A stretch of 64,000 bases of DNA from Phycisphaerales bacterium (GTDB lineage Bacteria > Planctomycetota > Phycisphaerae > Phycisphaerales > UBA1924), in the NCBI GenBank assembly GCA_007693765.1, contig RECZ01000097.1, positions 1,862 through 65,861 on the forward strand, read 5' to 3'. A model generated the notes under the pieces. It did not search any database. It was not told the DNA's origin and worked only from the letters and a program-made list of their open reading frames with translations. Shown piece after piece: positions 4,693-58,300 of this stretch. Position 1 is the stretch's first letter. Every line of letters starts with the position of its first letter. The position numbers and the translations under genes are program-made.

Positions 4693-4725
4693 TCCGCCAG
4701 CGTCAATACATCTTTCCCCGTCGCC

Positions 4726-6286: not shown

Positions 6287-6311
6287 TTCCGGGGGGTCGA
6301 CTTCCGGGGGG
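6287..6311. repeat. Tandem direct repeat, 2 x TTCCGGGGGG spaced 15 bp apart
   Basis: Exact 10-mers at 6287-6296 and 6302-6311, 65-89 nt upstream of the 6222 start on the opposite strand. See the findings for related copies at 22243, 23512, 25835/25872 and 48218. Confidence 0.4.
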
Positions 6312-6566
6312 TGGGTTGCTTGTTGGTGGTGGATCGCGCCATTCGCGGTCGGGCTCCGTCGGGTGGGTGTGCTTGCGGGGGCGGACCAGCGTACCACGCC
6401 CGCGGGCCCCATCCACGGTCCGAAAAGCCCGGGAAATCACGCGATTCTTCTGGATCGGGCGCTGGCGCACCCGCCCCCGGGGTGTACACTCGATACAACC
6501 TGCGGCGTGGGCGCCGCGTGCGCCCGCCCCATCGCCCCGCCCGTTCCACGAGAGGCAGAGAGACCC

Positions 6567-7916: not shown

Positions 7917-7938
7917 CCAACCCCGCGCCGGCGAGCGA

Positions 7939-13371: not shown

Positions 13372-13422
13372 GCGCCGCTGCTCCGGGCCCCACGCCTCCG
13401 GGTGTCATTCCTCCGGGTGCCA

Positions 13423-13445
13423 CACTGCAGCCGCAGGCTGCGGTG
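13423..13445 (+). terminator. Weak hairpin downstream of tatD
   Basis: CACTGCAGC-cgcag-GCTGCGGTG forms a 9-bp stem including one G.U pair. It is followed by ctcttctccc, a poor U tract. Confidence 0.25.
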
Positions 13446-13560
13446 TGCTCTTCTCCCAAGTACCCATCTCACCACCGATCGTCGTTCGTTCCTGTTGGGC
13501 ACTACGCCTGACCACGCGGCTGCAGGCATGTCGGATCCATTCTGCGTGTCGGACGCTCAA

Positions 13561-13588
13561 CCACTGCTGACCCGCGGGTCAGCAGTGG
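13561..13588. promoter_or_regulatory. Perfect 28-bp palindrome 63 nt upstream of trpE (candidate operator or leader hairpin)
   Basis: CCACTGCTGACCCG|CGGGTCAGCAGTGG, with 14-nt arms that are exact reverse complements. Confidence 0.4.
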
Positions 13589-13650
13589 CACCCGGATTCA
13601 GGCTCGATCGCCCATCACACAACCCACCTCCCCGCCGTACACTCGCCGTC

Positions 13651-15249
13651 ATGCCCAGCGTCACCCGTGAGGAATTCGTGCGACTGGTCGGCCGCGAGCG
13701 GCGCGCCGAGGGGGAGACGCTCCTCGTCCCCGTCGGCGTCCGACTGCTCAGCGACCACCTCACCCCCGTGGGCGCGTACCGGCGCCTCGTTGCGCCCGAT
13801 GAACGCACCGCCCCCTCGTTCCTGCTCGAATCTGTCGAGAACGGCGAGCGCCAGGGGCGCCACTCCCTGCTCGGCGCCCAGCCCTCGATCGAGGTCGTCG
13901 CCTACGCCAACGACGTCCGCATCACCGACCACCGCGCCGGCGAAACAACCACCTCGCGCGAGGCCGACCCCCTCGCCACTGTCCGCGCCGTCTCGCGCGC
14001 GTGGCGCTTCGTCGAACCCCCGAGCGTGCGCGGCCACGAGCTCCCCTCGTGCGCGCTGGGCGGGTGGTTCGGGTGGGCGTCGTACGACAGTGTGCGCTAC
14101 GCCGAGCCCGACAAGCTCACCCTCGACAACGCCCCGCCCGACGACCGGCGCCTCCCCGACGTCCACTTCGCGTGGCACGACGGCGCCGTCGTCTTCGATC
14201 ACGTGGACAAGCTCGCCCACGTCGTGCGACTGGCGCGCGTCGGCCCGGGAGACGACCCCGGCGGCGCGTACGACGCCGCGATCGACGCCATCGAGCGCAC
14301 CGTCGGCGCCCTCCAGGGCGAAGGCCCCCGCCTCGCCTGCGGGCGCGTGGAGCGCGACGCGTCCCCGCCGGGCGAACTCCGCTCCAACATCACGCGCGAA
14401 CAGCACGCCGGCATGGTCGCCCGCGCGCAGGAGTACATCCGCGCCGGCGACATCTTCCAGGTCGTGATCGGCCAGCGCTTCGAGCGCGTCAGCCCCGCGG
14501 ACCCGTTCGACGTCTACCGCGCCCTGCGCGCCGTGAACCCCAGCCCCTACATGGTGTACATGCAGGGCGAGGGGTGCATCCTCGTCGCCTCCAGCCCCGA
14601 GATCCTCTGCCGCGTGGCGCGCGGGCCGTGCGGGGAGTGGGTCGTGACCAACCGCCCCCTCGCGGGCACGCGCCGTCGCGGCGCCACGCCCGAGGAGGAC
14701 GCCGCCCTCGAACGCGAACTCCTCGCCGACGAAAAAGAGCGCGCCGAGCACGTCATGCTCGTCGACCTCGGTCGCAACGACGTCGGGCGCGTCGCGGAGC
14801 CGGGCACGATCGACCTGCCCGCGCTCATGGAGATCGAGCGCTACAGCCACGTCATGCACATCAGCTCGACCGTCACCGGCGCGTTGCGCGATGGCCTCGA
14901 CTGCTGGGACGCCCTCCGCGCCACACTCCCCGTGGGCACCATCTCCGGCGCGCCCAAGATCCGTGCCATGCAGATCATCGACGAACTCGAGCCCGTCCGG
15001 CGCGGGCCCTACGGCGGCGGCATGGGCTACATCGCCCCCGACGGCCGCATGGACATCGCCCTCGCCCTGCGCACCATCGTTGTCCCCACCACGATGCGCA
15101 GGGACGACGCGTGGATGTACCACCTGCAGGCCGCGGGCGGCATCGTGGCCGACTCGAAAGCCGACGACGAGTTTCAGGAGACCGTCAACAAGGCCGCGGC
15201 CCTGGCGCGCGCGATCGACCTCGCCGAGCGCGCCTTCCCGCCGGCGTGA
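13651..15249 (+). CDS. trpE: Anthranilate synthase component I
   Basis: MPSVTREEFVRL...LLSDHLTPVGAYRRL...FLLESVE...SPYMVYM...GTRRRG...ADEKERAEHVMLVDLGRND...ISGAPKIRAMQIIDELE...RGPYGG. ATG at 13651. Confidence 0.92.
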   Translation: MPSVTREEFVRLVGRERRAEGETLLVPVGVRLLSDHLTPVGAYRRLVAPDERTAPSFLLESVENGERQGRHSLLGAQPSIEVVAYANDVRITDHRAGETTTSREADPLATVRAVSRAWRFVEPPSVRGHELPSCALGGWFGWASYDSVRYAEPDKLTLDNAPPDDRRLPDVHFAWHDGAVVFDHVDKLAHVVRLARVGPGDDPGGAYDAAIDAIERTVGALQGEGPRLACGRVERDASPPGELRSNITREQHAGMVARAQEYIRAGDIFQVVIGQRFERVSPADPFDVYRALRAVNPSPYMVYMQGEGCILVASSPEILCRVARGPCGEWVVTNRPLAGTRRRGATPEEDAALERELLADEKERAEHVMLVDLGRNDVGRVAEPGTIDLPALMEIERYSHVMHISSTVTGALRDGLDCWDALRATLPVGTISGAPKIRAMQIIDELEPVRRGPYGGGMGYIAPDGRMDIALALRTIVVPTTMRRDDAWMYHLQAAGGIVADSKADDEFQETVNKAAALARAIDLAERAFPPA

Positions 15250-15333
15250 CGGCGCATGGGACGGCGCGAACGCGCAGAACAGCGCACGCCACACGTCAGC
15301 GCGCGACGACACGGACCGGCGGCGGCCGCCCGG

Positions 15334-15603
15334 TCAGAGCGTTTCTTTGAGCTGTTGCGACGCTCGGAAGCCCACGGTCTTGCTCGGGCCGATCACCATC
15401 CGCTCGCGCGTCGCCGGGTTGACGCCCTCGCGCGCCGCCCGCTGCTTCTTCTCGAAGCAGCCGAACCCCGCGATGGTCACCTTCCGCTCGGTGCGCACAC
15501 CGTCGGCGATGTTCTTGATCACCGCCTCCACGACCCGGCTCGCCGTTGTTTTGCTCTCGCCGAGATCACGAGCCACGCGTTCGATTAGATCCGACTTATT
15601 CAT
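15334..15603 (-). CDS. HU/IHF-family nucleoid-associated DNA-binding protein
   Basis: MNKSDLIERVARDLGESKTTASRVVEAVIKNIADGV...VTIAGFGCFEKKQRAAREGVNPATRERMVIGPSKTVGFRASQQLKE. Confidence 0.92.
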   Translation of the reverse strand: MNKSDLIERVARDLGESKTTASRVVEAVIKNIADGVRTERKVTIAGFGCFEKKQRAAREGVNPATRERMVIGPSKTVGFRASQQLKETL

Positions 15604-15820
15604 GCCAAAGAACTCCCACCGGCGGGCACGGGGGACACGACGCCACGAGACAACTCCGCCCCGAAACGCCAACGTTGTTCTTTCTCCCACCACGTAGTTT
15701 CCGAAGCCCGCCTAGGCCCACGAGGGTACCACCCCCGCCCTCCCCCCGCAATAAGGAGGGGAGGATTTTCCTCGATTCTGCCGATCTTTCTCTCTACCAT
15801 CCCCTGACGGACGCACCGCC

Positions 15821-16204
15821 ATGAACGACCAAGCCCCCGCGACGACCCAGACCCCCAAAGTCACCCCCGCCACCCGCACCGACGCCCGGCCGCGGCCCAA
15901 GCGGCAGTGGCTCTGGAACGTCGTGCTCCTCGACGACGACCACCACACCGACGTCTACGTCGTCCGCATGATGCAGGAGCTCTTCCACAAGAAGCCCGCC
16001 GACGGCCTCCGCGTCGCCGTCGAGGTCGACACCCAGGGCCGGGCCGTCTGCCTGACGACCCACAAAGAGCTCGCCGAACTGAAGCGCGATCAGATCCACG
16101 CCTACGGGCGCGACCCGCTCATCGCCTCCTGCGCCGGCGCCATGCGCGCCGTCATCGAACCCGCCGAGGGTTCGGGCGACGACGACCCCGACAACCGCGA
16201 CTGA
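15821..16204 (+). CDS. clpS: ATP-dependent Clp protease adaptor ClpS-like
   Basis: The core WLWNVVLLDDDHHTDVYVVRMMQELFHKKPADGLRVAVEVDTQGRAVCLTTHKELAELKRDQI matches the ClpS fold pattern. The N-terminus is disordered. Confidence 0.75.
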   Translation: MNDQAPATTQTPKVTPATRTDARPRPKRQWLWNVVLLDDDHHTDVYVVRMMQELFHKKPADGLRVAVEVDTQGRAVCLTTHKELAELKRDQIHAYGRDPLIASCAGAMRAVIEPAEGSGDDDPDNRD

Positions 16205-16293
16205 CCAACAGGCGCACGCCGCGCCCCGCGCCCCCCACGCGCGCCCGCCGCCCAACCGGTATCCTCGCGCCCCCGCACGGAGCGCACCCCGCC

Positions 16294-45356: not shown

Positions 45357-45959
45357 TCAGACACAGGCGCGTTCGGTGCGCGCCGTGGCCTCGCCCAGCG
45401 CCGCCACCAAGGCGTCGGCACGCTCCATCGGGTTCTCACCCCCCTGCTCGATGACCAGCGGGGCGTTCACGGCCACGTTCCACCGGGAGGCGAGCGCGGT
45501 GGCCTTGGTGAGCACGGCGGCGATCGCCAAGTCGCTTCTGAGATGGCGGTTGGTGATGGGCGCGAGGGTTTCGAGCAACGCGGCGAGATCGGCGCAGGCC
45601 TCGATGGTGCGCAGCGGCGCCGCGGCGGCGTCGCGGGCGGCCTCGGGTAGTTCGTCGCGACGGCGGGGATCATCCTCGGGCAGGCGCATGATCTCGTTGA
45701 GTCGGCCGTAGGCGCGGGCGTCTTCGTCCGCGAGGCGGAGGAAATCGGCGCGTCGCTCCTGCAGGCGCGTGGCGGCGGCGCGGAGGGCGTCGTCGTGCTC
45801 GGCGAGGCTCTTCTTCCCGATGGAGTACGCGACGACCATCGAGGCGAGGGCCGCGCCGAGCGCGCCGGCGATCGAGGAGACGGCGCCGCCGCCGGGCGTG
45901 GGCGTCTTGGCGCCGAGCGCATCGAGGAACCCGCCGATCGTTTCTGTTGTGATGTCCAC
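45357..45959 (-). CDS. Cyclodeaminase/cyclohydrolase family protein (FtcD C-terminal-like)
   Basis: FLDALGAKTPTPGGGAVSSIAGALGAALASMVVAYSIGKK is the family's characteristic N-terminal motif. Confidence 0.82.
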   Translation of the reverse strand: MDITTETIGGFLDALGAKTPTPGGGAVSSIAGALGAALASMVVAYSIGKKSLAEHDDALRAAATRLQERRADFLRLADEDARAYGRLNEIMRLPEDDPRRRDELPEAARDAAAAPLRTIEACADLAALLETLAPITNRHLRSDLAIAAVLTKATALASRWNVAVNAPLVIEQGGENPMERADALVAALGEATARTERACV

Positions 45960-45984: not shown

Positions 45985-48117
45985 TCAGGGTGTCGGGGAC
46001 ACGGCGCGCACCACGCCGGGGGCGTTGGTGGTCTTGGCGCGTTCCTCGTCGCGGATGGCGTCGCGCAGGCCGCGCCGGTCGCTGTCGTCGGCGACGCCGT
46101 CGGCGTTGAGGTCGGGCGGCGAGGGGAGGGCGTGGTAGGCGTAGAGGTCGCGGACGTCGACGACGCCGTCGTCGTTGAGGTCGTACTCGGTGACGCCGAT
46201 GGTGAACGCGAAGGGAGAGACGATGGCCTCGCGCTCGCGCACCTCGTTGCCCGCGACCACGCGCCAGAAGTACGTCTGGCCGACTTCGAGCAGCTCGTCG
46301 GGCACGTCGAAGAACGTGCCGCCGCTGAGCAGCGGGATGACGAACTCGCTGACGATCGGGTCGGCGAAGTCGGCGCTCGTTGCGAGCTGCACGGTGTAGG
46401 CGAGGGCGTTGGGCGATTCGTCCCACTGCAGGCTGACGGGCAGGCCGATGGTGGCGCCGTCGGCGGGCGTGCGCAGGGCGAAGGCGCCCGGGCCCGGGCG
46501 GGTGGTGAAGGTCGCGACGGCGGGCGTGGAGCCGCGCACGTCGAGGGAATTGATCGCGCTGACGCGCCAGAAGTAGGTGACGCCGTCGTCGATGTCGTCC
46601 GCGGTGAGCAGCCGCATGGGCTGCGTGGTCACGACGTTCACCACGCGCTGTGCGAAGCCGCTGTCTGTCGCCACCTCGACGCGGTACTCCTTCGCGTCGA
46701 TCGCGGGCGACCACGTGAGCACGACGGGGATGAACGCGGCGTCGTCGCCGTCCGAGGGCGTCAGCAGCGTGAACGGGCCGGGCGGGCCCAGCATCCGGAA
46801 CTGCGCCGTCTGCGGCGACGCGGTGCGCGAGCCGACCGCGTTGGTCGCGACGACGCGCCAGTGGTACGTCGCGCCCTCGTTGAGCGCGACGCCGATGGTG
46901 TACGTGGTGTCGGTGAGCGCCGGCTCCGCGACGATGGTGTTCGTGAGGGCGGCGTCGGTGGCCACGACGAGGCTGTAGGCCTCGGCGCCATCCGAATCGT
47001 TCCACGCCAGCGTGACGGGGCCGACGAGGCCCTGCGTCGCGTTGCTCGCGGGCGCGGTGACGGCGAAGGGGCCGGGCGCGGGCAGGACGACGAACACGAA
47101 AGATTCACCGGAGACGCGCTCGGCGCCGGAGTTGCGCAGCGCGGTCACACGCCAGTGGTACGTCGCGCCGGGCGCGAGGATGTCGGGCGGCGTCGTGTAC
47201 GACAGCCCGGAAAGCGTGGCCGTGTGCACGATGTCCGCGAAGCCGGAGTCGGAGGCGATCTCGACGCGGTAGGAGGCCGCGTTGTTCGATCGCGTCCACG
47301 TGAGCGTGGGCGAGAGGCCCAGGCCTGTCTGGTTGTTCGGGGGCGATTGCAACGTGAACGCCCCGGGCGGGTTGGGCGTCTCCGATGGGGGTGGGTCGCC
47401 GCCGTTGCCGCCGCCACCACCGTTGCCGTTGGGGGGCGGAACGACCGGGCCGCCACCGCCGCCGCCGGAGGTCACGAGCAAGCCGTTGCCGAGGACGCCG
47501 CCGTTGCTCTGGCCGGGCGGGCCGTTGCTTCTGCCGTCGGCGTTGGCCCCGTTGAGCCCCTGCATGGGGTTCGACGTGCGGCCGGACGCCACGCCGCGCC
47601 TCGAGATCGGCGGCTGCGCAAAGAACGGCGTGCTCTGCTGACCGAGGGCGGCCTCGGCGATCTGGCCGGTGCGCTCTGCGCTGTCTTCGGGGACGCCCGA
47701 GGTCTCGGGCTCGGTTTGGCGGCTCACGTTCCGCCGTGCGTTGGCGCGGGCGTTGGCCGCGGCGCCCTGCGCGAGCGCCTCATCGCGGGCGCGACGCAGC
47801 GCCTCGGCCCGGGCGGCGGGGTCGGCGGGGGTGAGCGTCTGCGGTCGCTGGATCTGGCTGGTGATGGCCTCGCGGGCGCCGCGTCCTCGGGATGGGTCGG
47901 CGGGCTGGCGGGCGGTGGGTCGCGGCGGCGGCTGAGCAAAGCGCGTCGACGATCGCGCAGAGGGCGCCACGCGATCCTGCGCGGCGGTGTCGCGGGACTC
48001 GGGCGGCACGAGCACGACCGGGGAATCGGCCCCGAGCCCACAGCCGCGCTGGAGCATCCCGAAAAAGATCGCGCCGAGAATGCACGCGAGGATGATGGCC
48101 CAGCTCGATCGTCCCAT
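45985..48117 (-). CDS. Membrane-anchored/secreted protein with 4 tandem Ig/FN3-like repeats of about 95 aa and a dockerin-like C-terminus
   Basis: TM helix WAIILACILGAIFFGML, then a low-complexity linker. Four repeats follow the pattern PG.F.L..P...L.W......A..Y.V..A.D..F......G.TY.WRV.A.N. C-terminus DLNDDGVVDVRDLYAY...DLNADGVADDSD. Confidence 0.8.
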   Translation of the reverse strand: MGRSSWAIILACILGAIFFGMLQRGCGLGADSPVVLVPPESRDTAAQDRVAPSARSSTRFAQPPPRPTARQPADPSRGRGAREAITSQIQRPQTLTPADPAARAEALRRARDEALAQGAAANARANARRNVSRQTEPETSGVPEDSAERTGQIAEAALGQQSTPFFAQPPISRRGVASGRTSNPMQGLNGANADGRSNGPPGQSNGGVLGNGLLVTSGGGGGGPVVPPPNGNGGGGGNGGDPPPSETPNPPGAFTLQSPPNNQTGLGLSPTLTWTRSNNAASYRVEIASDSGFADIVHTATLSGLSYTTPPDILAPGATYHWRVTALRNSGAERVSGESFVFVVLPAPGPFAVTAPASNATQGLVGPVTLAWNDSDGAEAYSLVVATDAALTNTIVAEPALTDTTYTIGVALNEGATYHWRVVATNAVGSRTASPQTAQFRMLGPPGPFTLLTPSDGDDAAFIPVVLTWSPAIDAKEYRVEVATDSGFAQRVVNVVTTQPMRLLTADDIDDGVTYFWRVSAINSLDVRGSTPAVATFTTRPGPGAFALRTPADGATIGLPVSLQWDESPNALAYTVQLATSADFADPIVSEFVIPLLSGGTFFDVPDELLEVGQTYFWRVVAGNEVREREAIVSPFAFTIGVTEYDLNDDGVVDVRDLYAYHALPSPPDLNADGVADDSDRRGLRDAIRDEERAKTTNAPGVVRAVSPTP

Positions 48118-48380: not shown

Positions 48381-49343
48381 ATGACCTCAACCAGCGAGAA
48401 CGCGCCGGAGATCGTGCTGCCCGAGGCCGTGATGCACCGGCGGACCCCCAAAGACCCTGCCACCGCGACGGTCGTCAAAAACGAGCTTTGCACGGCCAAG
48501 AAGGCCGCGGGGTACGTGCGGCACATCGAGATCGACGTCGGCGGCACGGAACTGGAGAACTGCTGCCTGCCCGGGCAGGCGATCGGCATCCTCGCCGACG
48601 GCGTGGACGAGAACGGCAAGCCCCACAAGGTGCGGCTCTACTCGATCTGCTCGCCCACGGGCGGCGAGGACGGCAAGGGCCGCATCATCGCCACGACCGT
48701 CAAACGGATGATCGACGAACACTGGGAGTCGCGGAAGCTCTTCGTGGGCGTCTCGTCGAACTTCCTGTGCGACCGCAAGCCCGGGGACGAAGTGAAGGTG
48801 AGCGGGCCCAACGGCAAACGCTTCCTCTGCCCCGTCAACCGCAACGACTACAGCTACATCTTCTTCGCGACGGGCACGGGCATCGCGCCCTTCCGGGGCA
48901 TGGCGCTCGATCTCCTGCGGGGGGGGTGCACGAAGCCGATCTACCTCGTAATGGGCGCGCCCTACGCCACCGATCTGCTGTACCACGCGGAGATGCTGAG
49001 CCTCGCCGAAAAACACGAGAACTTCCAGTACGTCACCGCGATCAGCCGTGAGAAGCAACGCGACGGCCATGACCCGCTCTACATCCAGGACCGCATCCGC
49101 ACCGAGCGCGACCAGTTGCTGCCGGTGTTGGGCGACGAGAGCACGCTGATCTACATCTGCGGCATCGCGGGCATGGAGCTGGGCATCTTCCAGCAGCTCG
49201 CGCTGAACCTCAACGGCTCGGCGCTCGAGCAATATCTGCAGGTCGACCCGGAAGCCCTGGCGGACATCCGGCGGTGGGACCGGCGGATGATCCACAAGCA
49301 GGTCCGTCCCACGCGCCGCGTCTTTATGGAGGTCTACGCCTGA
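48381..49343 (+). CDS. Ferredoxin-NADP+ reductase (plant-type FNR family)
   Basis: RLYSICSP (FAD-binding RxYS), GVSSNFLC, YIFFATGTGIAPFRGM (NADP-binding), YICGIAGM, C-terminal ...FMEVYA. Confidence 0.9.
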   Translation: MTSTSENAPEIVLPEAVMHRRTPKDPATATVVKNELCTAKKAAGYVRHIEIDVGGTELENCCLPGQAIGILADGVDENGKPHKVRLYSICSPTGGEDGKGRIIATTVKRMIDEHWESRKLFVGVSSNFLCDRKPGDEVKVSGPNGKRFLCPVNRNDYSYIFFATGTGIAPFRGMALDLLRGGCTKPIYLVMGAPYATDLLYHAEMLSLAEKHENFQYVTAISREKQRDGHDPLYIQDRIRTERDQLLPVLGDESTLIYICGIAGMELGIFQQLALNLNGSALEQYLQVDPEALADIRRWDRRMIHKQVRPTRRVFMEVYA

Positions 49344-49499
49344 GCCGGCGCCCCCGCCGCCCCCGCCGCCCCCGGCTCGCTCGGCTGGACACGCACCCCC
49401 TTCCGGGCCGATGAACCGTGCAGCAGCGCCGCGCGGGGAACACCCCCCGACGCGGCCGATCAATATCGGGTCACACATGTTCAGGAAGGTCGGAGCGTT

Positions 49500-49760
49500 A
49501 TGACACACGTCATCGGTGAGACCTGCATCGGCACCAAAGAAACCGCCTGCGTCGACGTCTGCCCCGTGGATTGCATCCACCCTCGAAAGGACGAGCCGGC
49601 GTTCGAGCAGGTCGACCACCTCACCATCGACCCGGACGCGTGCATCGACTGCGGCCTGTGCGTGGACGAGTGCCCCGTCAAGGCCATTTACCCGGAGGCC
49701 GACCTGCCCCCGGAGTGGAACAAGTACATCCAGATCAACGCGGATTACTACAAAGACTGA
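49500..49760 (+). CDS. 7Fe-type ferredoxin (3Fe-4S + 4Fe-4S)
   Basis: MTHVIGETCIGTKETACVDVCPVDCIHP...CIDCGLCVDECPVKAIY. Confidence 0.9.
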   Translation: MTHVIGETCIGTKETACVDVCPVDCIHPRKDEPAFEQVDHLTIDPDACIDCGLCVDECPVKAIYPEADLPPEWNKYIQINADYYKD

Positions 49761-49778: not shown

Positions 49779-50819
49779 TCATTGGGCGCCGCGGGGCCGC
49801 AGGAACTCGGGGATCGTGAGCTCCCCGCCCTGCACGTCCAGCGATCGATCGTGGTAGGTGTGACAGAGCACGCACGAACTCGGGGCGCCCGCGCTGGGGC
49901 TGTGGCATTCGCGGCACGACATGATCCCGGGCAGCAGGATGTCGCGGGTGCTGACGCTCGTCGGCGCATCGATGTGGCAGGCGACGCACGAGAGCATCGT
50001 GTGCGAGTGGTGCGAGAACACCGCGCGCGTCAGCCAACGATCGGGGATCCGCGGCGGCTCGATGCGGAACGGCTCGCCCGGCGAGGCGTCGGGCACCGGC
50101 TCGATGCCCACGTGACACTTGGCGCAGCTTGTCTCGACCCGGCGCAGGGCGCGGTCGCGCCGCTCGGCGATCCAGGCGTCGGCCTCCGCGCCGCTGGCGA
50201 ACGCGGGCACGGCCTCGGCCCGCGGCGCTTCGGACGGGCCGGCGCGACGGCGCCGGCGACCGGTGTCCTCCTCCGGCTCCGCGGCGTCGTCGGCGTCCGG
50301 CGATTCGGCCCGGGCCCGCAGGGCCCACAGCGCGAGGGCGCCGTCGATGCGCTCCACCACGTGCGCGACCGATCCGTGGGGCACGGGCATGCGCTCGCCC
50401 CTCGGGTCGATCTCGACGGAGCCGAGATCGTCGCTGTGGCAGGCGATGCAGTGCGTGTCGAACCGGATGGGGCGCATGTTCCGCCCGGCGGAGTCCTGCA
50501 CGTGGCAGGAAGCGCACGACATCGACAGCCGGCCGTCGGGCAGCCGCTGCACGTGGGCGCGGGGATCCTTGACGAGGTCGGCGAGGTAGGCCTGCATGCC
50601 CGGGGCGTCGGGGTCCATGTGGCGGGCGTGGTTCAGGAGGATGGGGGTCGCGTCGTACCGGCCCTCGCGCAGCACCTCCCACTCGGGGTGGTCGCGCCAG
50701 AACGAGGTCACGGTGTTGACGATGCGTCCGCTGACCGGCGGGTCGACACGCGGACGCGCCACGACCCACGCCGCGGCGACGCCGGCGGCGAGGCCGATCG
50801 CGATGAGCGCCCAGCGCAT
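49779..50819 (-). CDS. Hexahaem c-type cytochrome with N-terminal anchor or signal
   Basis: Six CxxCH motifs: CASCH, CIACH, CAKCH, CVACH, CRECH, CVLCH. Start MRWALIAIGLAAGVAAAWVV. Its ATG overlaps the upstream stop (TGATG). Confidence 0.85.
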   Translation of the reverse strand: MRWALIAIGLAAGVAAAWVVARPRVDPPVSGRIVNTVTSFWRDHPEWEVLREGRYDATPILLNHARHMDPDAPGMQAYLADLVKDPRAHVQRLPDGRLSMSCASCHVQDSAGRNMRPIRFDTHCIACHSDDLGSVEIDPRGERMPVPHGSVAHVVERIDGALALWALRARAESPDADDAAEPEEDTGRRRRRAGPSEAPRAEAVPAFASGAEADAWIAERRDRALRRVETSCAKCHVGIEPVPDASPGEPFRIEPPRIPDRWLTRAVFSHHSHTMLSCVACHIDAPTSVSTRDILLPGIMSCRECHSPSAGAPSSCVLCHTYHDRSLDVQGGELTIPEFLRPRGAQ

Positions 50820-51370
50820 CACGGCAGGCTCCCGTTGTAGGCGGCGTCCATCGCGGGCGCACGCCCGAAGGCGTTGAGGTCTTTGTGGCACTGGATGCAG
50901 TGATTGTCGGAGATCATGCGCAGGTCGTGGTTCGGGCCCTTGTGCTCGACGTGGCACGCCGCGCAGTTCGAGGACATCCGCACGGCGTGCGCGCCCACCC
51001 CCCCGGAGCCCCTCGCGCCGCTGGCGGTGAACGGCCCGGGCTCACCGACGAACATCGACTGGTACGGGTGGTGCGCCGGGGCGACGTGGCATCGGAGGCA
51101 GGCGCTGTCCTGCACGGGCAGCCAGAAGCCGCTGCGCTCCGGGTCCGGTTGGTGGCATTGGGAGCAGTCGTCGGCGAACACCGCGTGGGCGGTGGTGAGC
51201 GGGCCGGCGCTGTACATGGAGAAATCCGCTCGCAGCCACGAGGCGCCCACCCAGCCGGCGGCGAGCGCCATCGCGATCAGGCCGATGCGACGCGGCCAGA
51301 CATCGTGCCAGTGATGCTCCCGCACGTAGCGGAGGTCGAAGCGTTCGCTGAGCGGTTCTATGTTGCGCAT
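50819..51370 (-). CDS. Membrane-anchored tetrahaem cytochrome c (NapC/NirT/NrfH-like architecture)
   Basis: One TM helix, IGLIAMALAAGWVGASWL, then CSQCH, CLRCH, CAACH, CIQCH. Confidence 0.8.
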   Translation of the reverse strand: MRNIEPLSERFDLRYVREHHWHDVWPRRIGLIAMALAAGWVGASWLRADFSMYSAGPLTTAHAVFADDCSQCHQPDPERSGFWLPVQDSACLRCHVAPAHHPYQSMFVGEPGPFTASGARGSGGVGAHAVRMSSNCAACHVEHKGPNHDLRMISDNHCIQCHKDLNAFGRAPAMDAAYNGSLP

Positions 51371-51375
51371 CGTGA

Positions 51376-52263
51376 TCAGATCCCCTTCCACCGCAACGCG
51401 ACCACCGCGTGCACAATCGCGAGCACGATGAGCGCCCAACTCGCCGGGACGTGCACGATCAGCCACGCGAAGAGCACGATCATCATCCGGCGCTGCCGCT
51501 GGAACTCACGCCGGCGTTCGCACAGGGACGCGAGTTCGTCCACCGCGCCGTGCAGCCGCGGCGGCGTCATCGTGCGCAGCGCCATGAACAGGGAGGCCGC
51601 GCGGTCGGTCTGCGCGAGCTGCGAGCCCGGGTCGCCTTCGAGGAACGGCTTGAGGTAGTCGCGGTAGAAGCGGGCGATGGGCTCGCCGGCCTCGGGCGCA
51701 TCGGGCTCCGGCGGCGTGTACTCGAGGTCCGCGGAGATGGCCGCGGTCTTGGGCGCTTCGAGCGAGCCGGCGCTCTCGATGACGACCTGCTCGGCGAGCG
51801 TGCGGATGTTCTCGAGCTGCCTGCCGAGCTGCTGGTAGAGCGTCTCGCCGGGCACGCTGTGCAGGAGCAGACGCGGCAGGAACTGCTGGAGCAGGATGCC
51901 CGCGAAGCCGCTGAGCGTGACGAACCCGAGCAGCACCCAGAGCAGCGTCGTCAGCGTGCCGCCCGTCTTGAACGCGCCGTGCAGCCCGACGAGCAGCACC
52001 GTCAGCAAGCCCAGCCACACGTGCGCACGCAGCCACGTCTTCGCCTTTCCGATGCGCCAGTGCGGCACGCGGCGCTTGAGCGAGAGCGCGGCGCAGAAGA
52101 GCATGATCGCCAGCGCGCACGAGCCCAGCGTGATGCCCACCGCGGTCGATCCGGACGGGCCGTTGAGGTGGCGCGGCGCGTCCCACAGGTACACGGCCAC
52201 GGCGGCCGCGCCGATGAGGGCCGTCGCCAACGCCCACCGAGATTGTGTGCGGTCGATCAGCAC
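51376..52263 (-). CDS. Integral membrane protein (4-5 TM helices) with conserved-looking His residues; possible b-type haem or quinone-interacting subunit
   Basis: GTG start. TM segments ALATALIGAAAVAVYLW, GITLGSCALAIMLFCAAL, HVWLGLLTVLLVGLHGAF, LLWVLLGFVTLSGFAGILL, MMIVLFAWLIVHVPASWALIVLAIVHAVV. The function is inferred from context only. Confidence 0.6.
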   Translation of the reverse strand: MLIDRTQSRWALATALIGAAAVAVYLWDAPRHLNGPSGSTAVGITLGSCALAIMLFCAALSLKRRVPHWRIGKAKTWLRAHVWLGLLTVLLVGLHGAFKTGGTLTTLLWVLLGFVTLSGFAGILLQQFLPRLLLHSVPGETLYQQLGRQLENIRTLAEQVVIESAGSLEAPKTAAISADLEYTPPEPDAPEAGEPIARFYRDYLKPFLEGDPGSQLAQTDRAASLFMALRTMTPPRLHGAVDELASLCERRREFQRQRRMMIVLFAWLIVHVPASWALIVLAIVHAVVALRWKGI

Positions 52264-52273
52264 GCGTGGGGCC

Positions 52274-53914
52274 TCATTTCGCGGCGTCCTCCGCCGAGGG
52301 GAAGAGGCCGCTGGCCTCGAGGAAGTCGCGCGCGTTGACGCGCACCGCGGCGTCGTGCGGGCAGGCGTAGACGCACGCCGGCCCGGTGGGCAGCGAGGTG
52401 CACTGGTCGCAGACGATGGCCCGCTCCGTGACGTTCACGACCTCGCCCGTCTCCGCGTAGCGCTTGGCGCGCTCGCTCTCCTCCTCGCCCAGCGCCTCGA
52501 GCGGGTGGAGTTGGATCGAGCTGTACGGGCACTGCTTGGCGCACACGCCGCAGCCCACGCACCAGTCCTCGATGAAGATGTTCAGGTCTTCGGTGCGACG
52601 GATCGAACCGACGGGGCAGCCGATCATGCACACCGGGTCCATGCACATGCGGCACGACGCGGGCACGAGGTACTTCTCGTAGCGCGGCCCCTCGCGCACG
52701 ATGCGGGAGATGTTGTCCTCGTGGGCGCTGGCGCACGCCTGTGCGCACTGGTCGCAGCGGGTGCACTTCTCGAGGTCGATGAGCATGAGGTTCTGGCCCT
52801 GGAGCAGGCCGAGGTCCTCGACCTCGCGGGGCTGGACGGTGGGCAGGATGGTCAGGGCGGCGCGCTGCTGCTCGCGCACCCGCTGGGCGGCGACGCGTTC
52901 GAGGCGGTCGACGAGGTCGGGGAAGCGCCGGATGACGCGCTCGAAGTGCTCTTTACCGATGCGCACCAACTCGACGCGTGCGGCGCGCCGCTTGCGCCCG
53001 CTCTCGATCACGGGGTGGTCGACGGCGCTGCACGTGGCGTTGCGGGGCGCGTTGCGCAGGAGCCCCGTCTCGCCGAAGAAGTCGCCGCGGGTGAGATAGG
53101 CGAGGTAGCGCACGCCGCCGGGGAACGCCTTGCCCACGCGGACCTGCCCGAGCCGCACGATGTACATCGCATCGGCCTCTTCGCCCTCGTTGAAGATCGT
53201 CGTGCCGGCCTCGAACGCGACGAGCTCGGCGCAGTCGCGGAGCTCCTCGATCGCGTTGTCGGGGAGCGACGAGAAGATGGGCACGTTGCGGAGGTGGTTG
53301 TCGAGGGCGCGCTCGCGGTACTTGGCGTCGGTGCGCTCCTTGAACGTCTTGGAGCGCTGCAACGCCTCGTACATGTTGCGCAGGATCTCGATCATCTCGC
53401 AGTCGGTCTCCGCGACGACCGTCGCGGATCGCGGGGCGAGGTTCAGGCACGACATCTCCCCGAAGACCTCCCCGGCGTTGAGCCGGGTGGCCAGTTCCCC
53501 GTAGCGCAGGTCGGCGCTGCCGGCGTCGATGGGGATGAGGCGGTCCGGGGGGTGCGTGGGCTTGCCGATGCGACGCTGACCGAGCGCTGCGCCGATCCGC
53601 GCGAGGAGCCCCGTGGGGCGCGACGCCGCGGCGCCGACACGCCGCCCGATGAAGACCTCGACCACGCCGTCGATGATGTAGAACGCCGTCGTCCCGCCCT
53701 CGCCCTCGCGGCAGATCACGTCGCCGGCCTTGAAGCGGCGACGGCGCACCGTCCCCGGGAACTTCTCCAGCGTGCGCTCGTCGACATCGGCGAAAATGTC
53801 GACGGCGCGGATTTCTTCGTTGCTCATCACGCGGCCTTCGGAGAAGGTCGCGATCGGCATGGCTTTCGCCATGGCCACCCTTTCCCGCCCACATGGGGCG
53901 TCGGAACCTGTCAT
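52274..53914 (-). CDS. Fusion protein: two cyclic-nucleotide-binding domains + four-cluster [4Fe-4S] ferredoxin module (NrfC/HybA/DmsB-like)
   Basis: cNMP domains: FKAGDVICREGEGGTTAFYIIDGVVEV...GEVFGEMSCL...RSATVVA and FEAGTTIFNEGEEADAMYIVRLGQVRV...GDFFGETGLL...RNATCSA. Fe-S motifs: CTRCDQCAQAC, CRMCMDPVCMIGCP, CVGCGVCAKQCP, CDQC...CVYACP. Start uncertain (53914, 53875 or 53827). Confidence 0.85.
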   Translation of the reverse strand: MTGSDAPCGRERVAMAKAMPIATFSEGRVMSNEEIRAVDIFADVDERTLEKFPGTVRRRRFKAGDVICREGEGGTTAFYIIDGVVEVFIGRRVGAAASRPTGLLARIGAALGQRRIGKPTHPPDRLIPIDAGSADLRYGELATRLNAGEVFGEMSCLNLAPRSATVVAETDCEMIEILRNMYEALQRSKTFKERTDAKYRERALDNHLRNVPIFSSLPDNAIEELRDCAELVAFEAGTTIFNEGEEADAMYIVRLGQVRVGKAFPGGVRYLAYLTRGDFFGETGLLRNAPRNATCSAVDHPVIESGRKRRAARVELVRIGKEHFERVIRRFPDLVDRLERVAAQRVREQQRAALTILPTVQPREVEDLGLLQGQNLMLIDLEKCTRCDQCAQACASAHEDNISRIVREGPRYEKYLVPASCRMCMDPVCMIGCPVGSIRRTEDLNIFIEDWCVGCGVCAKQCPYSSIQLHPLEALGEEESERAKRYAETGEVVNVTERAIVCDQCTSLPTGPACVYACPHDAAVRVNARDFLEASGLFPSAEDAAK

Positions 53915-54086: not shown

Positions 54087-55277
54087 GTGAAGACTGCTGA
54101 TGCCAACCGTCCGATCCGCGTGCTGAGCCTCGGCGCCTTGGGCGCGCTGAGCGGCGCCCTGCTCGTCGCGCTCGTCAGCGGCGCCTCGGGGCGCCAGCCC
54201 GCCCCGCCCATCACCGAAGCCCTCGCCGGGCCGGGCATGAGCGTCCTGCCGCGACTCATCTACATGGGCAACCCCACCTGCACCGGCAGCGCCTGCCACA
54301 GCGCCGACTCGCCCAGCGACATCGCCGGCCGCATGATCGGCGACGAGTTCAACATCTGGTCCGACAGCGACCCCCACGCCAACGCCTTCCGCTCGCTCAG
54401 CGACGACCTCTCCAAGCAGATCGCCGAGCGGCTCAGCATCCCCGACGCCACCGTCTCCGGGCGCTGCCTCACATGCCACACCATGCCCGTCCCCGAGCCG
54501 CAACGGGGCGAGCGCTTCGACGTCCGCAACGCCGTCGGCTGCGAGGCCTGCCACGGCCCCGGCGAGAAGTACCTCGAGCCGCACACCGCCGAGGGCTGGT
54601 ACGGGCGCCAGCGCGAGACACTCGACGCCCGCGGGTTTCTCGACACATGGGGCGTAATCGACACAACGAACATCTCGGTGCGGGCCACCATGTGCACGGC
54701 GTGCCACCTGAACATCGACCGCGACCTGCTCGACGCCGGGCATCCCCCGCTCAAGTTCGAGATGTTCGGGTACGACAACTACGTCTTTGACGAAGGCTTC
54801 CGCCGCCACTGGTCCAACCCCAAGGGCAAGATGTTCGACGCCCGACTCTGGGCCGTCGGACAGGCCGTGGCGCTCCAGGCCGCCAAGGCCCAGCGCGACT
54901 CGTGGAAGGCCAAGGGCTGGGACGTGGCCGACGCCGAGGCGCTCATCCGCATCTACGAGCAGGGCGTGCAGATCGTCCGCACGCACTTCGGGTCGGATGT
55001 CCCCGGCGCCCTCGATCGCGCCGAGATCACGCCCGCCAAGGCCGGCGCGGCCGCGAAGGACCTCGCCGCGCTCGCCGCCGGCGCGAGCACGCCCCTGCAC
55101 ATGGAGGTGCTGGCCTACGGCGTGGGCGCGCTCGTCGCGGCGTGCTACGACGCCAAGGGCGCGGAGCTCGACGACAACTTCTACGACGCCTTCTTCGACG
55201 CCCTCGACGCGGCCGCCGATGGAGACGCCGGCGCGTTCAAGGATTCGGCCGCTGCGCTCGCGGCCCTGGCGACCTGA
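54087..55277 (+). CDS. Secreted multihaem cytochrome c (cytochrome c554-like family), 4 haem motifs
   Basis: GTG start 9 nt after AAGGAG. Signal RVLSLGALGALSGALLVALVSGA. Motifs CTGSACH (CX4CH), CLTCH, GCEACHGPGEKYLEPH, CTACH. Confidence 0.8.
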   Translation: MKTADANRPIRVLSLGALGALSGALLVALVSGASGRQPAPPITEALAGPGMSVLPRLIYMGNPTCTGSACHSADSPSDIAGRMIGDEFNIWSDSDPHANAFRSLSDDLSKQIAERLSIPDATVSGRCLTCHTMPVPEPQRGERFDVRNAVGCEACHGPGEKYLEPHTAEGWYGRQRETLDARGFLDTWGVIDTTNISVRATMCTACHLNIDRDLLDAGHPPLKFEMFGYDNYVFDEGFRRHWSNPKGKMFDARLWAVGQAVALQAAKAQRDSWKAKGWDVADAEALIRIYEQGVQIVRTHFGSDVPGALDRAEITPAKAGAAAKDLAALAAGASTPLHMEVLAYGVGALVAACYDAKGAELDDNFYDAFFDALDAAADGDAGAFKDSAAALAALAT

Positions 55278-55336: not shown

Positions 55337-58300
55337 TTAGAACCCGCCGAAGGGGCTGCGCGGGAACTTCACGTACGGCAGTCGGATGGAGCGGCCGCTG
55401 GTGTCGACCATCACTTGGTCGGCGGTGACGACGGCGCCGTATTCCTGAAGATTGGTGGCGCCGACGAAGGCGACGAAGTCGTCCTGCTCGATGCCGTCGC
55501 CGGAGACGCCGATGCCGCCGACGAGCACGCCGTTGCGGTAGAGCGGCACGCTGCCGGGGAAGATCTGCAATCCGTTGGCGATAGGCAGCGAGGGATCGGT
55601 CACGCCGCGGGCGCCGAGGAGACCGGCGTTGAAGAGCCGAAGGGCCTCGCCGTCGGAGCCGGCGCTGGCGTACTCGTTGAGGTAGCCGACGAGATTGGTG
55701 ATGAGCAGTTGCGTCTGCAAGCCGGTGTTGAAGACGCTGAAGACCTCGCCGGGAGCGATGCTGAAGGGGCCGGGCGTCGTCCCCGGGATGCCGTCGGGCA
55801 GGAAGGGACGGGCGAGGAAGCCGCCGGCACGGTCACTGATCGCCACCGAGCCGTCGAGCGCGAGGCCGATGGCGTTGGCGCGGTCGGCGAACGAGGCGAA
55901 GGCGCCGCCCTCGGCGTTGCGCAGCAGGTCGCCGGTGTCGAGGCGGCTCATGGTCACCGCCGTGCGGGCCTTCTGCACCGAGACGTCGAACCCGAAGACC
56001 GGAGCGTCGGGCGAACGGAAGACGCCCAGTAGATTGCCCTCGGCGTCCACCACCGACACCGTGACCTGTGAGACCTGCGGCCTGTCCTTGCGGATCTGCG
56101 CCCGCAGCATGGCGTTGAGGTCGTGGGCGCGCCGCAGCGCCTCCTGCACATCGGCCTGCGAGAGGTGCTCGCCCTGATTCAGGCGCCCCGCGCGGGTGAG
56201 GGCCGCGGCGTCGTTGGGCGTGATCTCGGCGACGCCGGCGGGCGCGCCGGGCGAGGCAATGTTCACGCGGGCGACGCGGTCGGTGAGCGGGCTGACGCCG
56301 ACGAGGAAGCGGTCCGGCCCGGCCACGAGGATGCGCCCCTGCGCGAGCGCGCCGATGGGGTCTGCCAGCGCCTCGCCGGGAGCGAGCGTCGCGCCGTTGG
56401 CGGGCGAGAGCATGAACTGCTCGCCCGTCACGCTGTTCTGCAGGACAATCGCATCGTCGGCGGGGTCGCCCGTGCCCTTGTCGTCGTAGGCGATGGCGCC
56501 GAAGCGCTGGTGGGGCGCGCCGACATCGGAGCCCGGCGCTGTGAGGTTGCGCAGCACGGTGAGGGCGGCGGTGTTGGGGTTGATGCGCACGAGTTGCCGC
56601 TGCGGGCCCGATTCACGCACCGCGAAGACGGCGCTCGGACCGACCGTGAACGACTGCACCGCCCCCGCGCCGACACTCGTCAACGCGGCGAACGAGGCGG
56701 GGTTCGTGACGTCCGTCAGATCGACGCGGAAGAGCTGGCCGGTGGTCACGCTCACGCCGATCATCGCGGGCGAGCCGGCGTTGTCGAAGTACGCGGCGTC
56801 GCGCAAGACGGCGTCCGGGTTGGCGACCGTCTCGGCGGGCGTGGAGGCGCCGGTGTTGGCGTTGTAGCGCACCACGCGCCCCTGTTCGCTGACGACGAAG
56901 TGCGCATCGTCGCCAGTGACGCCGGGCGTGCCGGCGTCGTCGTAGACGAGCGAGAGCACGCGCTCGCCGGGGTCCAGCCGGGCGCCGGGGGCGTTCACGC
57001 CGCCGATGGTCGCCAGCACGGTGGCGGCGCCGGTGGAGGCGTTGATGCGCACGAGTTGTGTGGAGAGGTCCGCGCGTTCGCGCACGCCGAACAGGGCGTT
57101 CTCCCCCACCGCGACGGCCGAGTAGCGGCTGGAGGCGAGGTCGCCGATCGTCTCGCCGAGCCGCCCGCCGAGGGCGGTGGTGGTGAAGATGGTGGCGTCG
57201 CTGACGCGCGGCTGTGTGATGACTTCGAGCCGGCCCGCGGCCTCCTGGTTCGCGAAGGGCTCGATGAACGGCGTGAGCCTTCTGATCCTGTCGGGATTGC
57301 CGCGCTGGTACGCGAGGCGAACGCCCTCGACGAAGACGCGGTCGCCGCGGATCTGCCTGGGCGCCTCGAAGCCGATCTGCCCCGCGAGGGCGATGCGCTC
57401 CTCGGCGGTCTGCTTGCCCTTGCGCGTGAGCTCCGCCGTGTACTGCCCGTCAAGTTCGACGCCGATGCCGCCGAGCAGTTGCCCGTCGCGGTAGAGCGGC
57501 ACGCCGCCGGGGTCGGCCGCGAGCCCGAGGGGCAGGCGGTTGATGTCGCTCGTGGGGAGGTTGGAGAACTGCACGCCGAAGAGCGGGCCGGAGGGCTTGT
57601 TGCGGATCTGCGGCGGGAAGTTGGGCTGGATGATGAAGCCCGCGGTGCGGGTGGTGAAGGCGTTGCCGTTGGAGGAGAGGAACGCGGCGGTGCCGGCCTT
57701 CGTGGCCGCGGCCATGGCGCTGGGCACGCTCACGCCCTCGAGCCCGCCGCTGCCGCCGCCGGTGATGGTGGTCGTCGTGGGGGCGGAGGCGAGGGCGCCG
57801 TCGGTCATGCGCACGGCGCCGAGCACCGTGCCCTCGCGGTCCATCAGCACGATGGTGGCGTTGACGCCGAGGCGGCGCGCCTGCGCGACGGCCTGCTCGA
57901 TGATGCGCTCCACATCGGCCTCGATGAGCGCGACGCCGGGGCTGGGCAGCGGGTCGATCACGGCGCTGCCCACGACGCCCACGCCGCTGCGGGGCTTGTC
58001 GGTGAGGTCATAGCCGTCGACGTGGATCGCGCCGAGCGTCGCGGCGTAGATGCCGGGGTTCACGTGCTCGGAGTGCTCGCCGACGATCAGCCCGCCGACG
58101 TGCAGTCGGGCGATCTCGCCGCCGCGGAGGATGTCGCCGTCGCGGAAGCGCAGGTCGGGGCCGGGGGCGCCGCCGGCGCTGATGATGGAGTCCACCACGT
58201 CGGCGCCGACCACCACCTCGCCGATGGTCCCGACGTTGAACGCCGCGCCCTCGAGCGTGAAGCCGGGGCCGAGGATCGTGCCCGCCATGAGCAGCGAGTC

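Follow-up and report, generated by a model that had tools for sequence, protein, structure and literature searches.

A Phycisphaerales four-gene redox cluster as the probable inner-membrane core of an envelope-spanning PCC4/Ptd-type electron conduit

The 64,000-nucleotide stretch of contig RECZ01000097.1 (GenBank assembly GCA_007693765.1, Phycisphaerales bacterium), here called the window, carries at positions 49779 to 53914 four closely packed minus-strand genes, which encode an iron-sulfur (Fe-S) protein with cyclic-nucleotide-binding (CNB) domains, an integral membrane protein, a tetrahaem cytochrome and a hexahaem cytochrome. We consider it probable, at roughly 60%, that these genes encode the inner-membrane core of an envelope-spanning conduit of the PCC4/Ptd type, which would carry electrons outward from NAD(P)H or ferredoxin under the control of cyclic nucleotide monophosphates (cNMP). 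The arrangement as such is already known from sequence alone, as PCC4 (He, Barco, Emerson and Roden 2017, PMC5566968) and as the putative operon ptdABCDEFG (bioRxiv 10.1101/2023.11.21.568154, 2024), and is experimentally untouched. Our proposal draws directly on domain content, invariant cofactor ligands, topology indicators, conserved synteny and the fold of the porin barrel. The initial annotation of the stretch had described a transmembrane redox unit, in which a membrane subunit that binds haem connects an Fe-S protein in the cytoplasm with multihaem cytochromes in the periplasm, and our results agree with this description; its remark that the terminal partner of the unit is not evident also holds.

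The four genes are confirmed to be real. The Fe-S protein gene spans positions 52274 to 53914 as an open reading frame (ORF), followed by the membrane protein gene (51376 to 52263, GTG start, 295 residues with about five hydrophobic helices), the tetrahaem cytochrome gene (50819 to 51370, four CxxCH motifs) and the hexahaem cytochrome gene (49779 to 50819, six CxxCH motifs), the motif counts agreeing with the haem numbers first given. The junctions are exactly as first described, with a 10-nt gap between the Fe-S and membrane genes, a 5-nt gap between the membrane and tetrahaem genes, and a 1-nt overlap (GTGATG) of the tetrahaem and hexahaem genes. In all four genes the GC content at the third codon position (0.85 to 0.95) far exceeds that at the second (0.48 to 0.56), which is the coding signature of this sequence of about 71% GC. 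The two cytochromes hold 4 + 6 CxxCH motifs within 529 residues, for which the chance expectation, estimated from the Cys and His frequencies, is about 0.01. The terminator scan found no terminator-like sites on the minus strand within the four genes. The promoter and terminator scan as a whole gave only matches at chance level, with a consensus that may not fit this phylum, and no Rfam family reached its gathering score between positions 48000 and 64000.

The Fe-S protein is composed of two CNB domains followed by a C-terminal 4 x [4Fe-4S] module. The regulatory domains noted in the initial annotation are borne out by the Pfam family cNMP_binding, which matches with an E value of 4e-35, and several Fer4 families match as well. 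The four-cluster ferredoxin is likewise supported by an alignment of 21 homologs, in which 16 Cys in four CxxCx(2-8)CxxxC(P) motifs are invariant, indicating four [4Fe-4S] clusters. The phosphate-binding cassette of the first CNB domain (G-E-x-x-C-x-x-x-x-P-R-S-A-T) is invariant among the homologs, and that of the second is intact (G-E...R-x-A). The homologs begin at a MAK/MGK position, which matches M15 of the ORF (position 53872) and gives a protein of 532 residues, so that the start at 53914 is regarded as an upstream alternative. Neither a Sec nor a Tat signal is found at the N-terminus, and the protein is predicted to be cytoplasmic.

Two further Cys of this protein, C54 and C142 in the numbering of the 532-residue form, are invariant and lie inside the first CNB domain, one of them in the phosphate-binding cassette (GEMSCLN); they could be a redox-sensitive pair or serve as ligands of a metal. 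A variant of the protein is found in the related locus L009 (positions 2726 to 5227, plus strand), where a seven-blade WD40 propeller is inserted between Cys motifs III and IV and all four cluster motifs are kept despite the insertion.

The membrane protein is probably a di-haem cytochrome b, as judged from its conserved residues and predicted topology. The motifs W77-x3-H81-x13-H95, S118-G-x-x-G122 and W267-x3-H271-x13-H285 are invariant in 28 diverse homologs, and the four invariant His, spaced i and i+14, lie in the transmembrane (TM) helices TM3 and TM5. The AlphaFold2 structure model, with a predicted local distance difference test (pLDDT) score of 88.6, shows five long TM helices (residues 5-31, 41-63, 74-95, 103-133 and 235-293) and a helical insert at residues 134-234, with a helical cytoplasmic loop of about 125 residues. 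From the distribution of Lys and Arg, the cytoplasmic parts are the N-terminus, the loop at residues 64-75 and the large loop at residues 131-258. With this topology, each TM3/TM5 His pair would be located at one membrane face, which is the classic geometry of two stacked b haems. The original description of a subunit with about five TM helices, bearing His and not resembling NrfD, is consistent with these findings, and neither the NrfD nor the NarI profile matches the protein.

The homologs of the membrane protein carry the label "hypothetical" in every source that names them, and there are no more than hints of a relation to known di-haem families. The Pfam family Ferric_reduct (Pfam ID PF01794) matches 12 of the 28 members at E <= 0.05, the best with 1.8e-5; the window protein itself reaches 18 bits, where the cutoff is 28. 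DUF4405 matches ten of the 28 and Ni_hydr_CYTB two, in both cases weakly. The Foldseek search of the structure model against the PDB gave nothing significant (best E value 0.76, the top matches being generic helical bundles), and the family profile found nothing below an E value of 1 among the PDB sequences. Aligning the family profile with hhalign resulted in a probability of 0.6% for Escherichia coli MsrQ, which has a ferric reductase domain (FRD), and of less than 1% for E. coli YodB, a cytochrome b561, each of these single-sequence templates being a weak test.

The tetrahaem and hexahaem cytochromes are, as judged from their alignment, the split form of one decahaem cytochrome in this lineage. 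Placed end to end, they align with single proteins of other lineages, each of which has exactly ten CxxCH motifs. The tetrahaem cytochrome is colinear with residues 1 to about 150, the N-terminal third, of the 10-haem proteins in five related loci (L003, L040, L009, L070 and L024), and the hexahaem cytochrome aligns with the C-terminal approximately 300 residues of the fused decahaems. The hexahaem protein has its own N-terminal signal or anchor, a hydrophobic stretch inserted at the point of fission. The colinearity and the insertion at the break point together mark the pair as a lineage-specific fission of one membrane-anchored decahaem. The tetrahaem part matches the Pfam families Cytochrom_c3_2 and Paired_CXXCH_1. 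It had been called NrfH-like, which does not hold up, since none of the NapC/NirT/NrfH profiles (Cytochrom_NNT, TIGR03153) matches at E <= 0.01 and the protein corresponds instead to the N-terminal part of the split decahaem. Its membrane anchor is only moderately hydrophobic, with a Kyte-Doolittle mean over 19 residues of about 1.4 in a hand calculation, and is preceded by a cytoplasmic N-terminal motif, R-[IF]-D-L-x-Y, that is common to the tetrahaem protein and the fused decahaems. The hexahaem part matches Cytochrome_C7 with an E value of 1e-9 and reaches 34.7 bits with the profile Mtrc-MtrF_II-IV_dom, over the cutoff of 30.

An extended form of the N-terminal motif, R-[IF]-D-L-x-Y-[FV]-[KR], lies at residues 8 to 18, approximately, of the tetrahaem protein and is found in the orthologs of L003, L005, L040, L070 and L024. 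It could contact the membrane or the Fe-S subunit on the cytoplasmic side.

The gene unit exceeds the four genes and reaches at least position 64000 of the window. The tight packing described in the initial annotation as a four-gene operon is thus real, and its extent was understated: a c554-like cytochrome, an outer-membrane barrel and a lipoprotein cytochrome are conserved partners. The c554-like tetrahaem cytochrome gene (54087 to 55277, plus strand, divergent from the Fe-S gene; Pfam Cytochrome_C554, 2e-9) resembles PtdD, and its product has a signal peptide, three CxxCH motifs and one CxxxxCH motif and is predicted to be periplasmic. The porin and the lipoprotein cytochrome are encoded 5 to 10 kb from the four-gene core. 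The porin gene (59323 to 61242, plus strand) codes for an outer-membrane beta-barrel of 639 residues; its ORF opens at 59218, and gene callers start it at M36. The protein has a signal peptide, ends in ...GLTLTF at the C-terminus and has no Pfam match. Its AlphaFold2 model consists of 18 long strands, and in a Foldseek search its best match is AlgE, an alginate exporter of the outer membrane (E value 8e-16, probability 1.0, target-normalised TM score 0.62 to 0.65). The gene for the multihaem lipoprotein cytochrome begins 24 nt past the porin gene and runs off the end of the window (61266 to 64000, plus strand). With the lipobox ...VSLSAC and ten CxxCH motifs within the 911 residues up to the window end, it holds at least ten haems; the full-length ortholog in L009 has 1,286 residues, ten haems and C-terminal LVIVD repeats. 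The NCBIfam model ExtM matches weakly, with 96 bits against a cutoff of 800.

For the conservation of this cluster, we scanned one genome per species and found at least 589 carriers; the synteny counts cover the best 80, whose loci were searched for partners with tblastn and of which 50 have full 10-kb flanks. The membrane-protein profile alone retrieves 4,643 clusters at 50% identity (E <= 1e-3, 1.84 billion representatives), and the family consists mainly of Acidobacteriota of soil and peat, besides Planctomycetota, Methylomirabilota and others. The best 80 carriers include 55 Acidobacteriota plus one labelled Vicinamibacteraceae, 12 Planctomycetota, seven Methylomirabilota/Rokubacteria, and one each of Binatota, Verrucomicrobiota, Wallbacteria, a betaproteobacterium and an unclassified organism, and the core is syntenic across these species genomes from about seven phyla. 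The Fe-S gene adjoins the membrane gene in 79 of the 80 loci and in all 50 with full flanks. The tetrahaem part is found in 78 loci (49 of the 50 with full flanks), the hexahaem part in 73 (49), the divergent c554-like cytochrome in 64 (43), a NuoE/F-like protein in 61 (42), the porin in 43 (33) and, next to it, the lipoprotein multihaem cytochrome in 40 (31). The nearest relatives are Phycisphaerales-type metagenome-assembled genomes, with 57 to 60% identity in the membrane protein. The Fe-S protein has up to 86% identity to the nearest relatives and 75% to a genome named Phycisphaerales, and the porin orthologs beside the module are 47 to 50% identical. A tblastn search with the membrane protein against 72,556 plasmids gave no match.

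A form of the module that lacks the cytochromes is found in three Candidatus Acidiferrales loci (L001, L002 and L047, positions 4162 to 8921). Here, the gene for the membrane protein, preceded by those for the NuoE/F-like protein and a NuoG-like-cNMP-Fe-S protein, has a Zn-alcohol dehydrogenase gene directly after it, and no decahaem, porin or c554-like gene is present within 8 to 10 kb. The membrane module evidently can work with other partners or has lost them.

Set against the published descriptions and the signature of the inner-membrane protein (IMP), the window cluster appears to match PCC4 and Ptd. PCC4 was described from bioinformatics only and comprises a porin, periplasmic 4-, 5- and 10-haem cytochromes and a conserved IMP; its Subgroup II includes Planctomycetes and has an Fe-S gene upstream of the IMP gene (PMC5566968). 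The window shares the IMP with five TM helices, of which TM3 and TM5 carry WX3HX13H and TM4 carries SGXXG, as well as the Fe-S gene directly upstream of the IMP gene, the 10-haem cytochrome downstream, the tetrahaem cytochrome upstream and, by description, a porin. It differs from PCC4, which has a pentahaem and no extracellular cytochrome, in that no pentahaem gene is present in the window, among the complete ORFs or the terminal ORF running off the end, and in that the porin is followed by a lipoprotein of about 1,300 residues with ten haems and LVIVD repeats. The 4 + 6 split of the decahaem sets the window apart from both PCC4 and Ptd.

The ptd operon, the function of which is stated to remain "completely unknown" (bioRxiv 10.1101/2023.11.21.568154), corresponds in gene order to the window, with PtdD as the periplasmic tetrahaem cytochrome, PtdE as the cNMP-binding 4Fe-4S protein, PtdF as the ferric-reductase-like membrane protein and PtdG as the decahaem cytochrome, and a FAD/NAD(P) oxidoreductase takes the position of PtdC in related Planctomycetota loci. 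The barrel at 59323 to 61242 would fill the slot of the outer-membrane porin (PtdB or the PCC4 porin), as far as the published descriptions go. The window has neither an equivalent of PtdA (pentahaem, NrfA-COG, beta-sandwich) nor a homolog of PtdC, and PtdE was described with two clusters, whereas the 16 invariant Cys indicate four here. The initial annotation had stated that a clean mapping onto an already characterised complex with conserved synteny would refute it; the cluster does share its synteny with a described system, which is itself experimentally uncharacterised.

The same annotation compared the cluster to quinol-linked complexes of the Nrf, Hmc, Tmc or Qrc type. In the corresponding explanation, the cluster would be a periplasmic respiratory module that links the quinol pool, or the oxidation of hydrogen or formate in the periplasm, to a soluble acceptor, for example nitrite or a sulfur species. 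The analogy in architecture stands: Tmc and Hmc have the same three layers of periplasmic multihaem cytochrome c, membrane cytochrome b and cytoplasmic Fe-S protein, and the Fe-S module falls within the broad four-cluster HydN/DmsB/NrfC fold family. Membership in these families does not follow, as the profile tests largely refute it. The Fe-S protein is far under the cutoff of every curated family tested (HydN, DmsB, NrfC, DsrO and others), and no subunit reaches a family cutoff (NrfC TIGR03149, 26 bits against 378; TmcA, 23 against 114; QrcA, 22 against 180). A Tat-exported subunit of NrfC type is contradicted by the cNMP domains at the N-terminus and the lack of a twin-arginine signal, and the Fe-S protein has no CCG/HdrD-type domain. 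The membrane subunit resembles neither NrfD nor NarI, a catalytic subunit (NrfA, molybdopterin enzyme or hydrogenase) is not conserved nearby, and the active-site motif CxxCK is absent. The partners that are conserved are a porin and a lipoprotein multihaem cytochrome; Tmc and Hmc have neither cNMP domains nor a porin or outer-membrane cytochrome and carry electrons inward to sulfite reduction. We therefore regard a periplasmic module of this kind as highly improbable.

The outer part of the cluster is more similar in design to MtrCAB and the Geobacter Ext conduits, which likewise combine a barrel in the outer membrane with a multihaem lipoprotein cytochrome and a decahaem in the periplasm. 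The hexahaem cytochrome is over the cutoff of the MtrC/MtrF domain II/IV profile, the sole match above cutoff to the MtrCAB type, and the lipoprotein cytochrome resembles ExtM weakly. The window barrel differs in being 18-stranded and AlgE-like, where MtrB is 26-stranded. Also, the window cluster includes no quinol dehydrogenase of the CymA, ImcH or CbcL type and no NapC/NirT protein, and the input at the inner membrane would pass through the cytoplasmic Fe-S protein.

For the transmembrane step, the NADPH oxidase (NOX), FRE, STEAP and MsrQ proteins offer the nearest parallel, with two bis-His haems on two TM helices and a cytoplasmic NAD(P)H-linked donor. A bis-His pair with a spacing of 13 residues on each of two TM helices, the feature by which the FRD is recognised, is present in the window protein (H81/H95 and H271/H285). 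Differences from NOX and FRD proteins are the five instead of six TM helices, the donor, which here would be a separate polyferredoxin and not a fused FAD/NADPH domain, and the acceptor, a multihaem cytochrome instead of O2 or Fe(III). The closest analogues thus seem to be Tmc and Hmc in architecture, NOX in transmembrane mechanism and MtrCAB/Ext for the outer module, with the window proteins apparently belonging to none of these families.

The cytoplasmic partners found in relatives bear on the source of the electrons. In 61 to 62 of the 80 genomes, the Fe-S protein has a NuoG-like N-terminal extension with 2Fe-2S and 4Fe-4S domains, and in the same genomes its gene comes after that of a NuoE/NuoF-fusion protein, which includes the 51-kDa domain binding flavin mononucleotide and NADH. 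In six Planctomycetota-type loci (L011, L014, L015, L018, L019 and L022), an NDH-2-like flavoprotein adjoins the c554-like gene in the PtdC position; it is composed of Pyr_redox_2 (2e-37) and NDH2_C domains and, at the C-terminus, a cNMP-binding domain of its own (7e-21). The cNMP domain recurs on two different input proteins, and every cytoplasmic partner encoded in such clusters is predicted to be of the NAD(P)H-oxidising type. NDH-2 enzymes are NADH:quinone reductases, and a parallel is found in the dedicated Ndh2 of flavin-based extracellular electron transfer (EET). We know of no described NADH dehydrogenase that is regulated by cNMP. The ptd preprint (10.1101/2023.11.21.568154) is silent on the widespread version with NuoE/F and the NuoG fusion, and we found no paper in the open-access literature that reports this dominant form.

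An example of the fusion of NDH-2 with a cNMP domain is encoded in L011 (positions 5213 to 6859, minus strand). Flavin-based electron bifurcation at the NuoE/F-like module was also considered and was dropped for want of support, as the extra Fe-S domains typical of bifurcating NuoF relatives did not appear among the domain matches.

In the conduit that we propose, the proteins would form a complex and act together as one chain. The polyferredoxin, with four [4Fe-4S] clusters and two cNMP domains, would dock on the cytoplasmic face of the five-TM cytochrome b, in which two bis-His haems would be stacked from one membrane face to the other. Of these, the outer one would hand electrons to the membrane-anchored decahaem, here split 4 + 6, from which they would pass to the c554-like tetrahaem cytochrome and then to the outer-membrane module formed by the 18-strand barrel and the large lipoprotein multihaem cytochrome. 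Electrons would leave the cytoplasm, with NAD(P)H or, in this organism, perhaps ferredoxin as their source, and would end on an acceptor in the periplasm or outside the cell. Their passage across the inner membrane would be NADPH-oxidase-like, that is, electrogenic and dissipating the membrane potential, and the binding of a cyclic nucleotide would serve as the on/off control. A device that drains NADH and membrane potential needs a switch, and the cNMP domains, being strictly conserved, suggest themselves most readily for this role. The direction of flow, the bypass of the quinone pool, the gating by cNMP and the nature of the acceptor are what we infer for this chain.

A more specific version of the conduit is put forward tentatively and seems rather doubtful to us. 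It would be a second-messenger-gated, quinone-independent wire, in which NADH would deliver electrons via a HoxFU/NuoEFG-like module to the polyferredoxin, the novel di-haem cytochrome b, the decahaem and the outer-membrane cytochromes. Such a wire might be described as a bacterial "NOX for minerals and humics", the opening of which would be controlled by cyclic AMP or cyclic GMP, and might represent a widespread class of respiratory or fermentative devices, a suggestion that we hold just as loosely.

Several observations weigh against the proposed outward, cNMP-controlled conduit. The window cluster itself includes no NuoE/F, NuoG-like or NDH-2 partner, and the ferredoxin-NADP reductase and ferredoxin genes next to it are convergent with the core and not conserved. 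Homology of the membrane subunit to the NOX and FRD proteins could not be demonstrated in the sequence and structure comparisons with Pfam, Foldseek, the PDB profile search and hhalign. The CNB domains of some proteins take ligands other than cNMP. The 18-strand barrel is narrower than the 26-strand MtrB, which makes the insertion of a cytochrome into the barrel uncertain. We found no experiment on any family member in the open-access literature. Furthermore, He et al. proposed the reverse direction for PCC4, with metal oxidation feeding the quinone pool (PMC5566968).

According to this original model, extracellular Fe(II), Mn(II) or a cathode would be oxidised and the electrons would enter the quinone pool or reach cytoplasmic acceptors. 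The first finding of PCC4 in Fe(II)-oxidising Zetaproteobacteria and in Hyphomicrobium of filters that remove Fe and Mn (PMC5566968) is in line with electron uptake. Multihaem conduits are reversible in principle. The cytoplasmic side of the clusters points the other way, as all partners seen there are NAD(P)H-type dehydrogenase modules. By established bioenergetics, inward flow to NAD+ (-320 mV) would be infeasible for Fe(II)-type donors, because the potential is negative inside and an ion-pumping subunit is missing; reduction of NAD+ from donors at the Fe(II) level appears thermodynamically implausible to us when no coupling-ion subunit takes part. Outward flow from NADH, by the same reasoning of our own, is exergonic. 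The distribution of the clusters also speaks against uptake, since most carriers belong to the Acidobacteriota, Planctomycetota and Methylomirabilota, and the first two of these phyla are mainly heterotrophs. A 2026 preprint describes porin-cytochrome clusters (EET1-4) that are expressed in Acidobacteriota and Verrucomicrobiota of peat and mentions no inner-membrane, NADH or cNMP component (10.64898/2026.05.27.727921); the expression of related clusters in anoxic peat, where acceptors and not donors are limiting, is a further argument against uptake. Taken together, we consider inward flow quite unlikely.

The main uncertainty of the proposed conduit concerns quinone: the membrane subunit could have a quinone site, and an NDH-2-type partner would fit a quinone-mediated route. 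In the corresponding explanation, the cytochrome b would be a quinol dehydrogenase in the role of CymA, CbcL or ImcH and would pass electrons to the periplasmic cytochromes, with the cNMP/Fe-S protein acting as a regulator or on a side branch. He et al. took the IMP as a quinone-active cytochrome b (PMC5566968). The NDH-2-type flavoprotein adjoining the module in some Planctomycetota loci and the lack of any NADH module in the window cluster would suit this route, as would the weak matches of several family members to Ni_hydr_CYTB and DUF4405, both of which we take to be families of quinone-reactive cytochromes b. A mere regulator is, on the other hand, hard to reconcile with a four-cluster polyferredoxin, the gene of which immediately precedes the membrane gene in 79 of the 80 genomes. 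In most lineages, the NuoG-like fusion behind NuoE/F would provide a full wire from NADH to the membrane, for which quinone is unneeded, and we identified no quinone-site motif in the membrane subunit. A quinol-linked conduit therefore seems unlikely to us, and we favour direct input from the cytoplasm through the polyferredoxin.

How bacteria outside Shewanella and Geobacter link their metabolism to extracellular acceptors is little understood, and the question carries most weight for the Acidobacteriota and Planctomycetota that dominate soils, peat and sediments. The cluster provides a concrete, conserved candidate in which all parts can be named, with NAD(P)H-oxidising modules on one side and a porin and surface cytochromes on the other. 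It draws interest from its very wide distribution in environmentally dominant phyla, its unannotated membrane family and the possibility of an export chain gated by a cyclic nucleotide. If the outward, cNMP-controlled conduit is correct, it would take electrons across the inner membrane by a new route around the quinone pool and would be the first electron-transfer chain to be directly gated by a cyclic nucleotide. It would also bear on how carbon is turned over and methane suppressed in anoxic soils. If it is wrong, what remains is a large and unannotated group of membrane cytochromes, probably di-haem, which deserves a name and a profile model.

Between the c554-like gene and the porin gene, the minus strand encodes a large secreted-type protein with HbpS-like (GlcG/DUF336) repeats (55337 to 59428, 1,363 residues), the true start of which is probably downstream of 59428. 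The HbpS-like Pfam family matches with 5e-23 over three stretches, corresponding to two or three domains, and a DUF6923 repeat region is found as well (7e-6). An HbpS-like gene is present in 25 of the 80 loci and in 16 of the 50 with full flanks. The protein is possibly an accessory or scaffold, its link to the conduit being inferred from co-location only. At its N-terminus, the protein has a weak match to the LEPR-XLL motif, which is presumably a protein-sorting signal. Rokubacteria also have an HbpS-like protein near the module (L024, positions 13321 to 14292).

On the other side of the core, two plus-strand genes are convergent with it: a plant-type ferredoxin-NADP reductase (FNR; 48381 to 49343), which scores 202 bits with the PetH-type FNR model, and a 7Fe-type ferredoxin (49500 to 49760), which scores 81 bits with the FdxA-type model, both below cutoff. 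The initial annotation had rightly placed this pair immediately next to the cluster, at 48381 to 49760; a relevance to the system is not supported, given the convergent orientation and the occurrence of FNR in one of the 80 loci, that of the closest relative L012, and in none of the 50 with full flanks. The adjacency is therefore a local feature of this sub-lineage. As a conserved feature, FNR and ferredoxin were dropped as a dedicated donor pair, which is possible in this organism only.

The FNR gene is adjoined by a minus-strand gene (45985 to 48117) for a membrane-anchored protein of 710 residues with repeated FN3/Ig-like domains. It keeps its position on the FNR side in the closest relative (L012, positions 14152 to 16254), with 44% identity by blastp and 53% over the best tblastn segment, and has no evident link to the redox cluster. 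Another minus-strand gene (45357 to 45959) encodes a formiminotransferase-cyclodeaminase C-terminal-domain protein (Pfam FTCD_C, 2e-43), which belongs to ordinary metabolism and is unrelated to the redox cluster.

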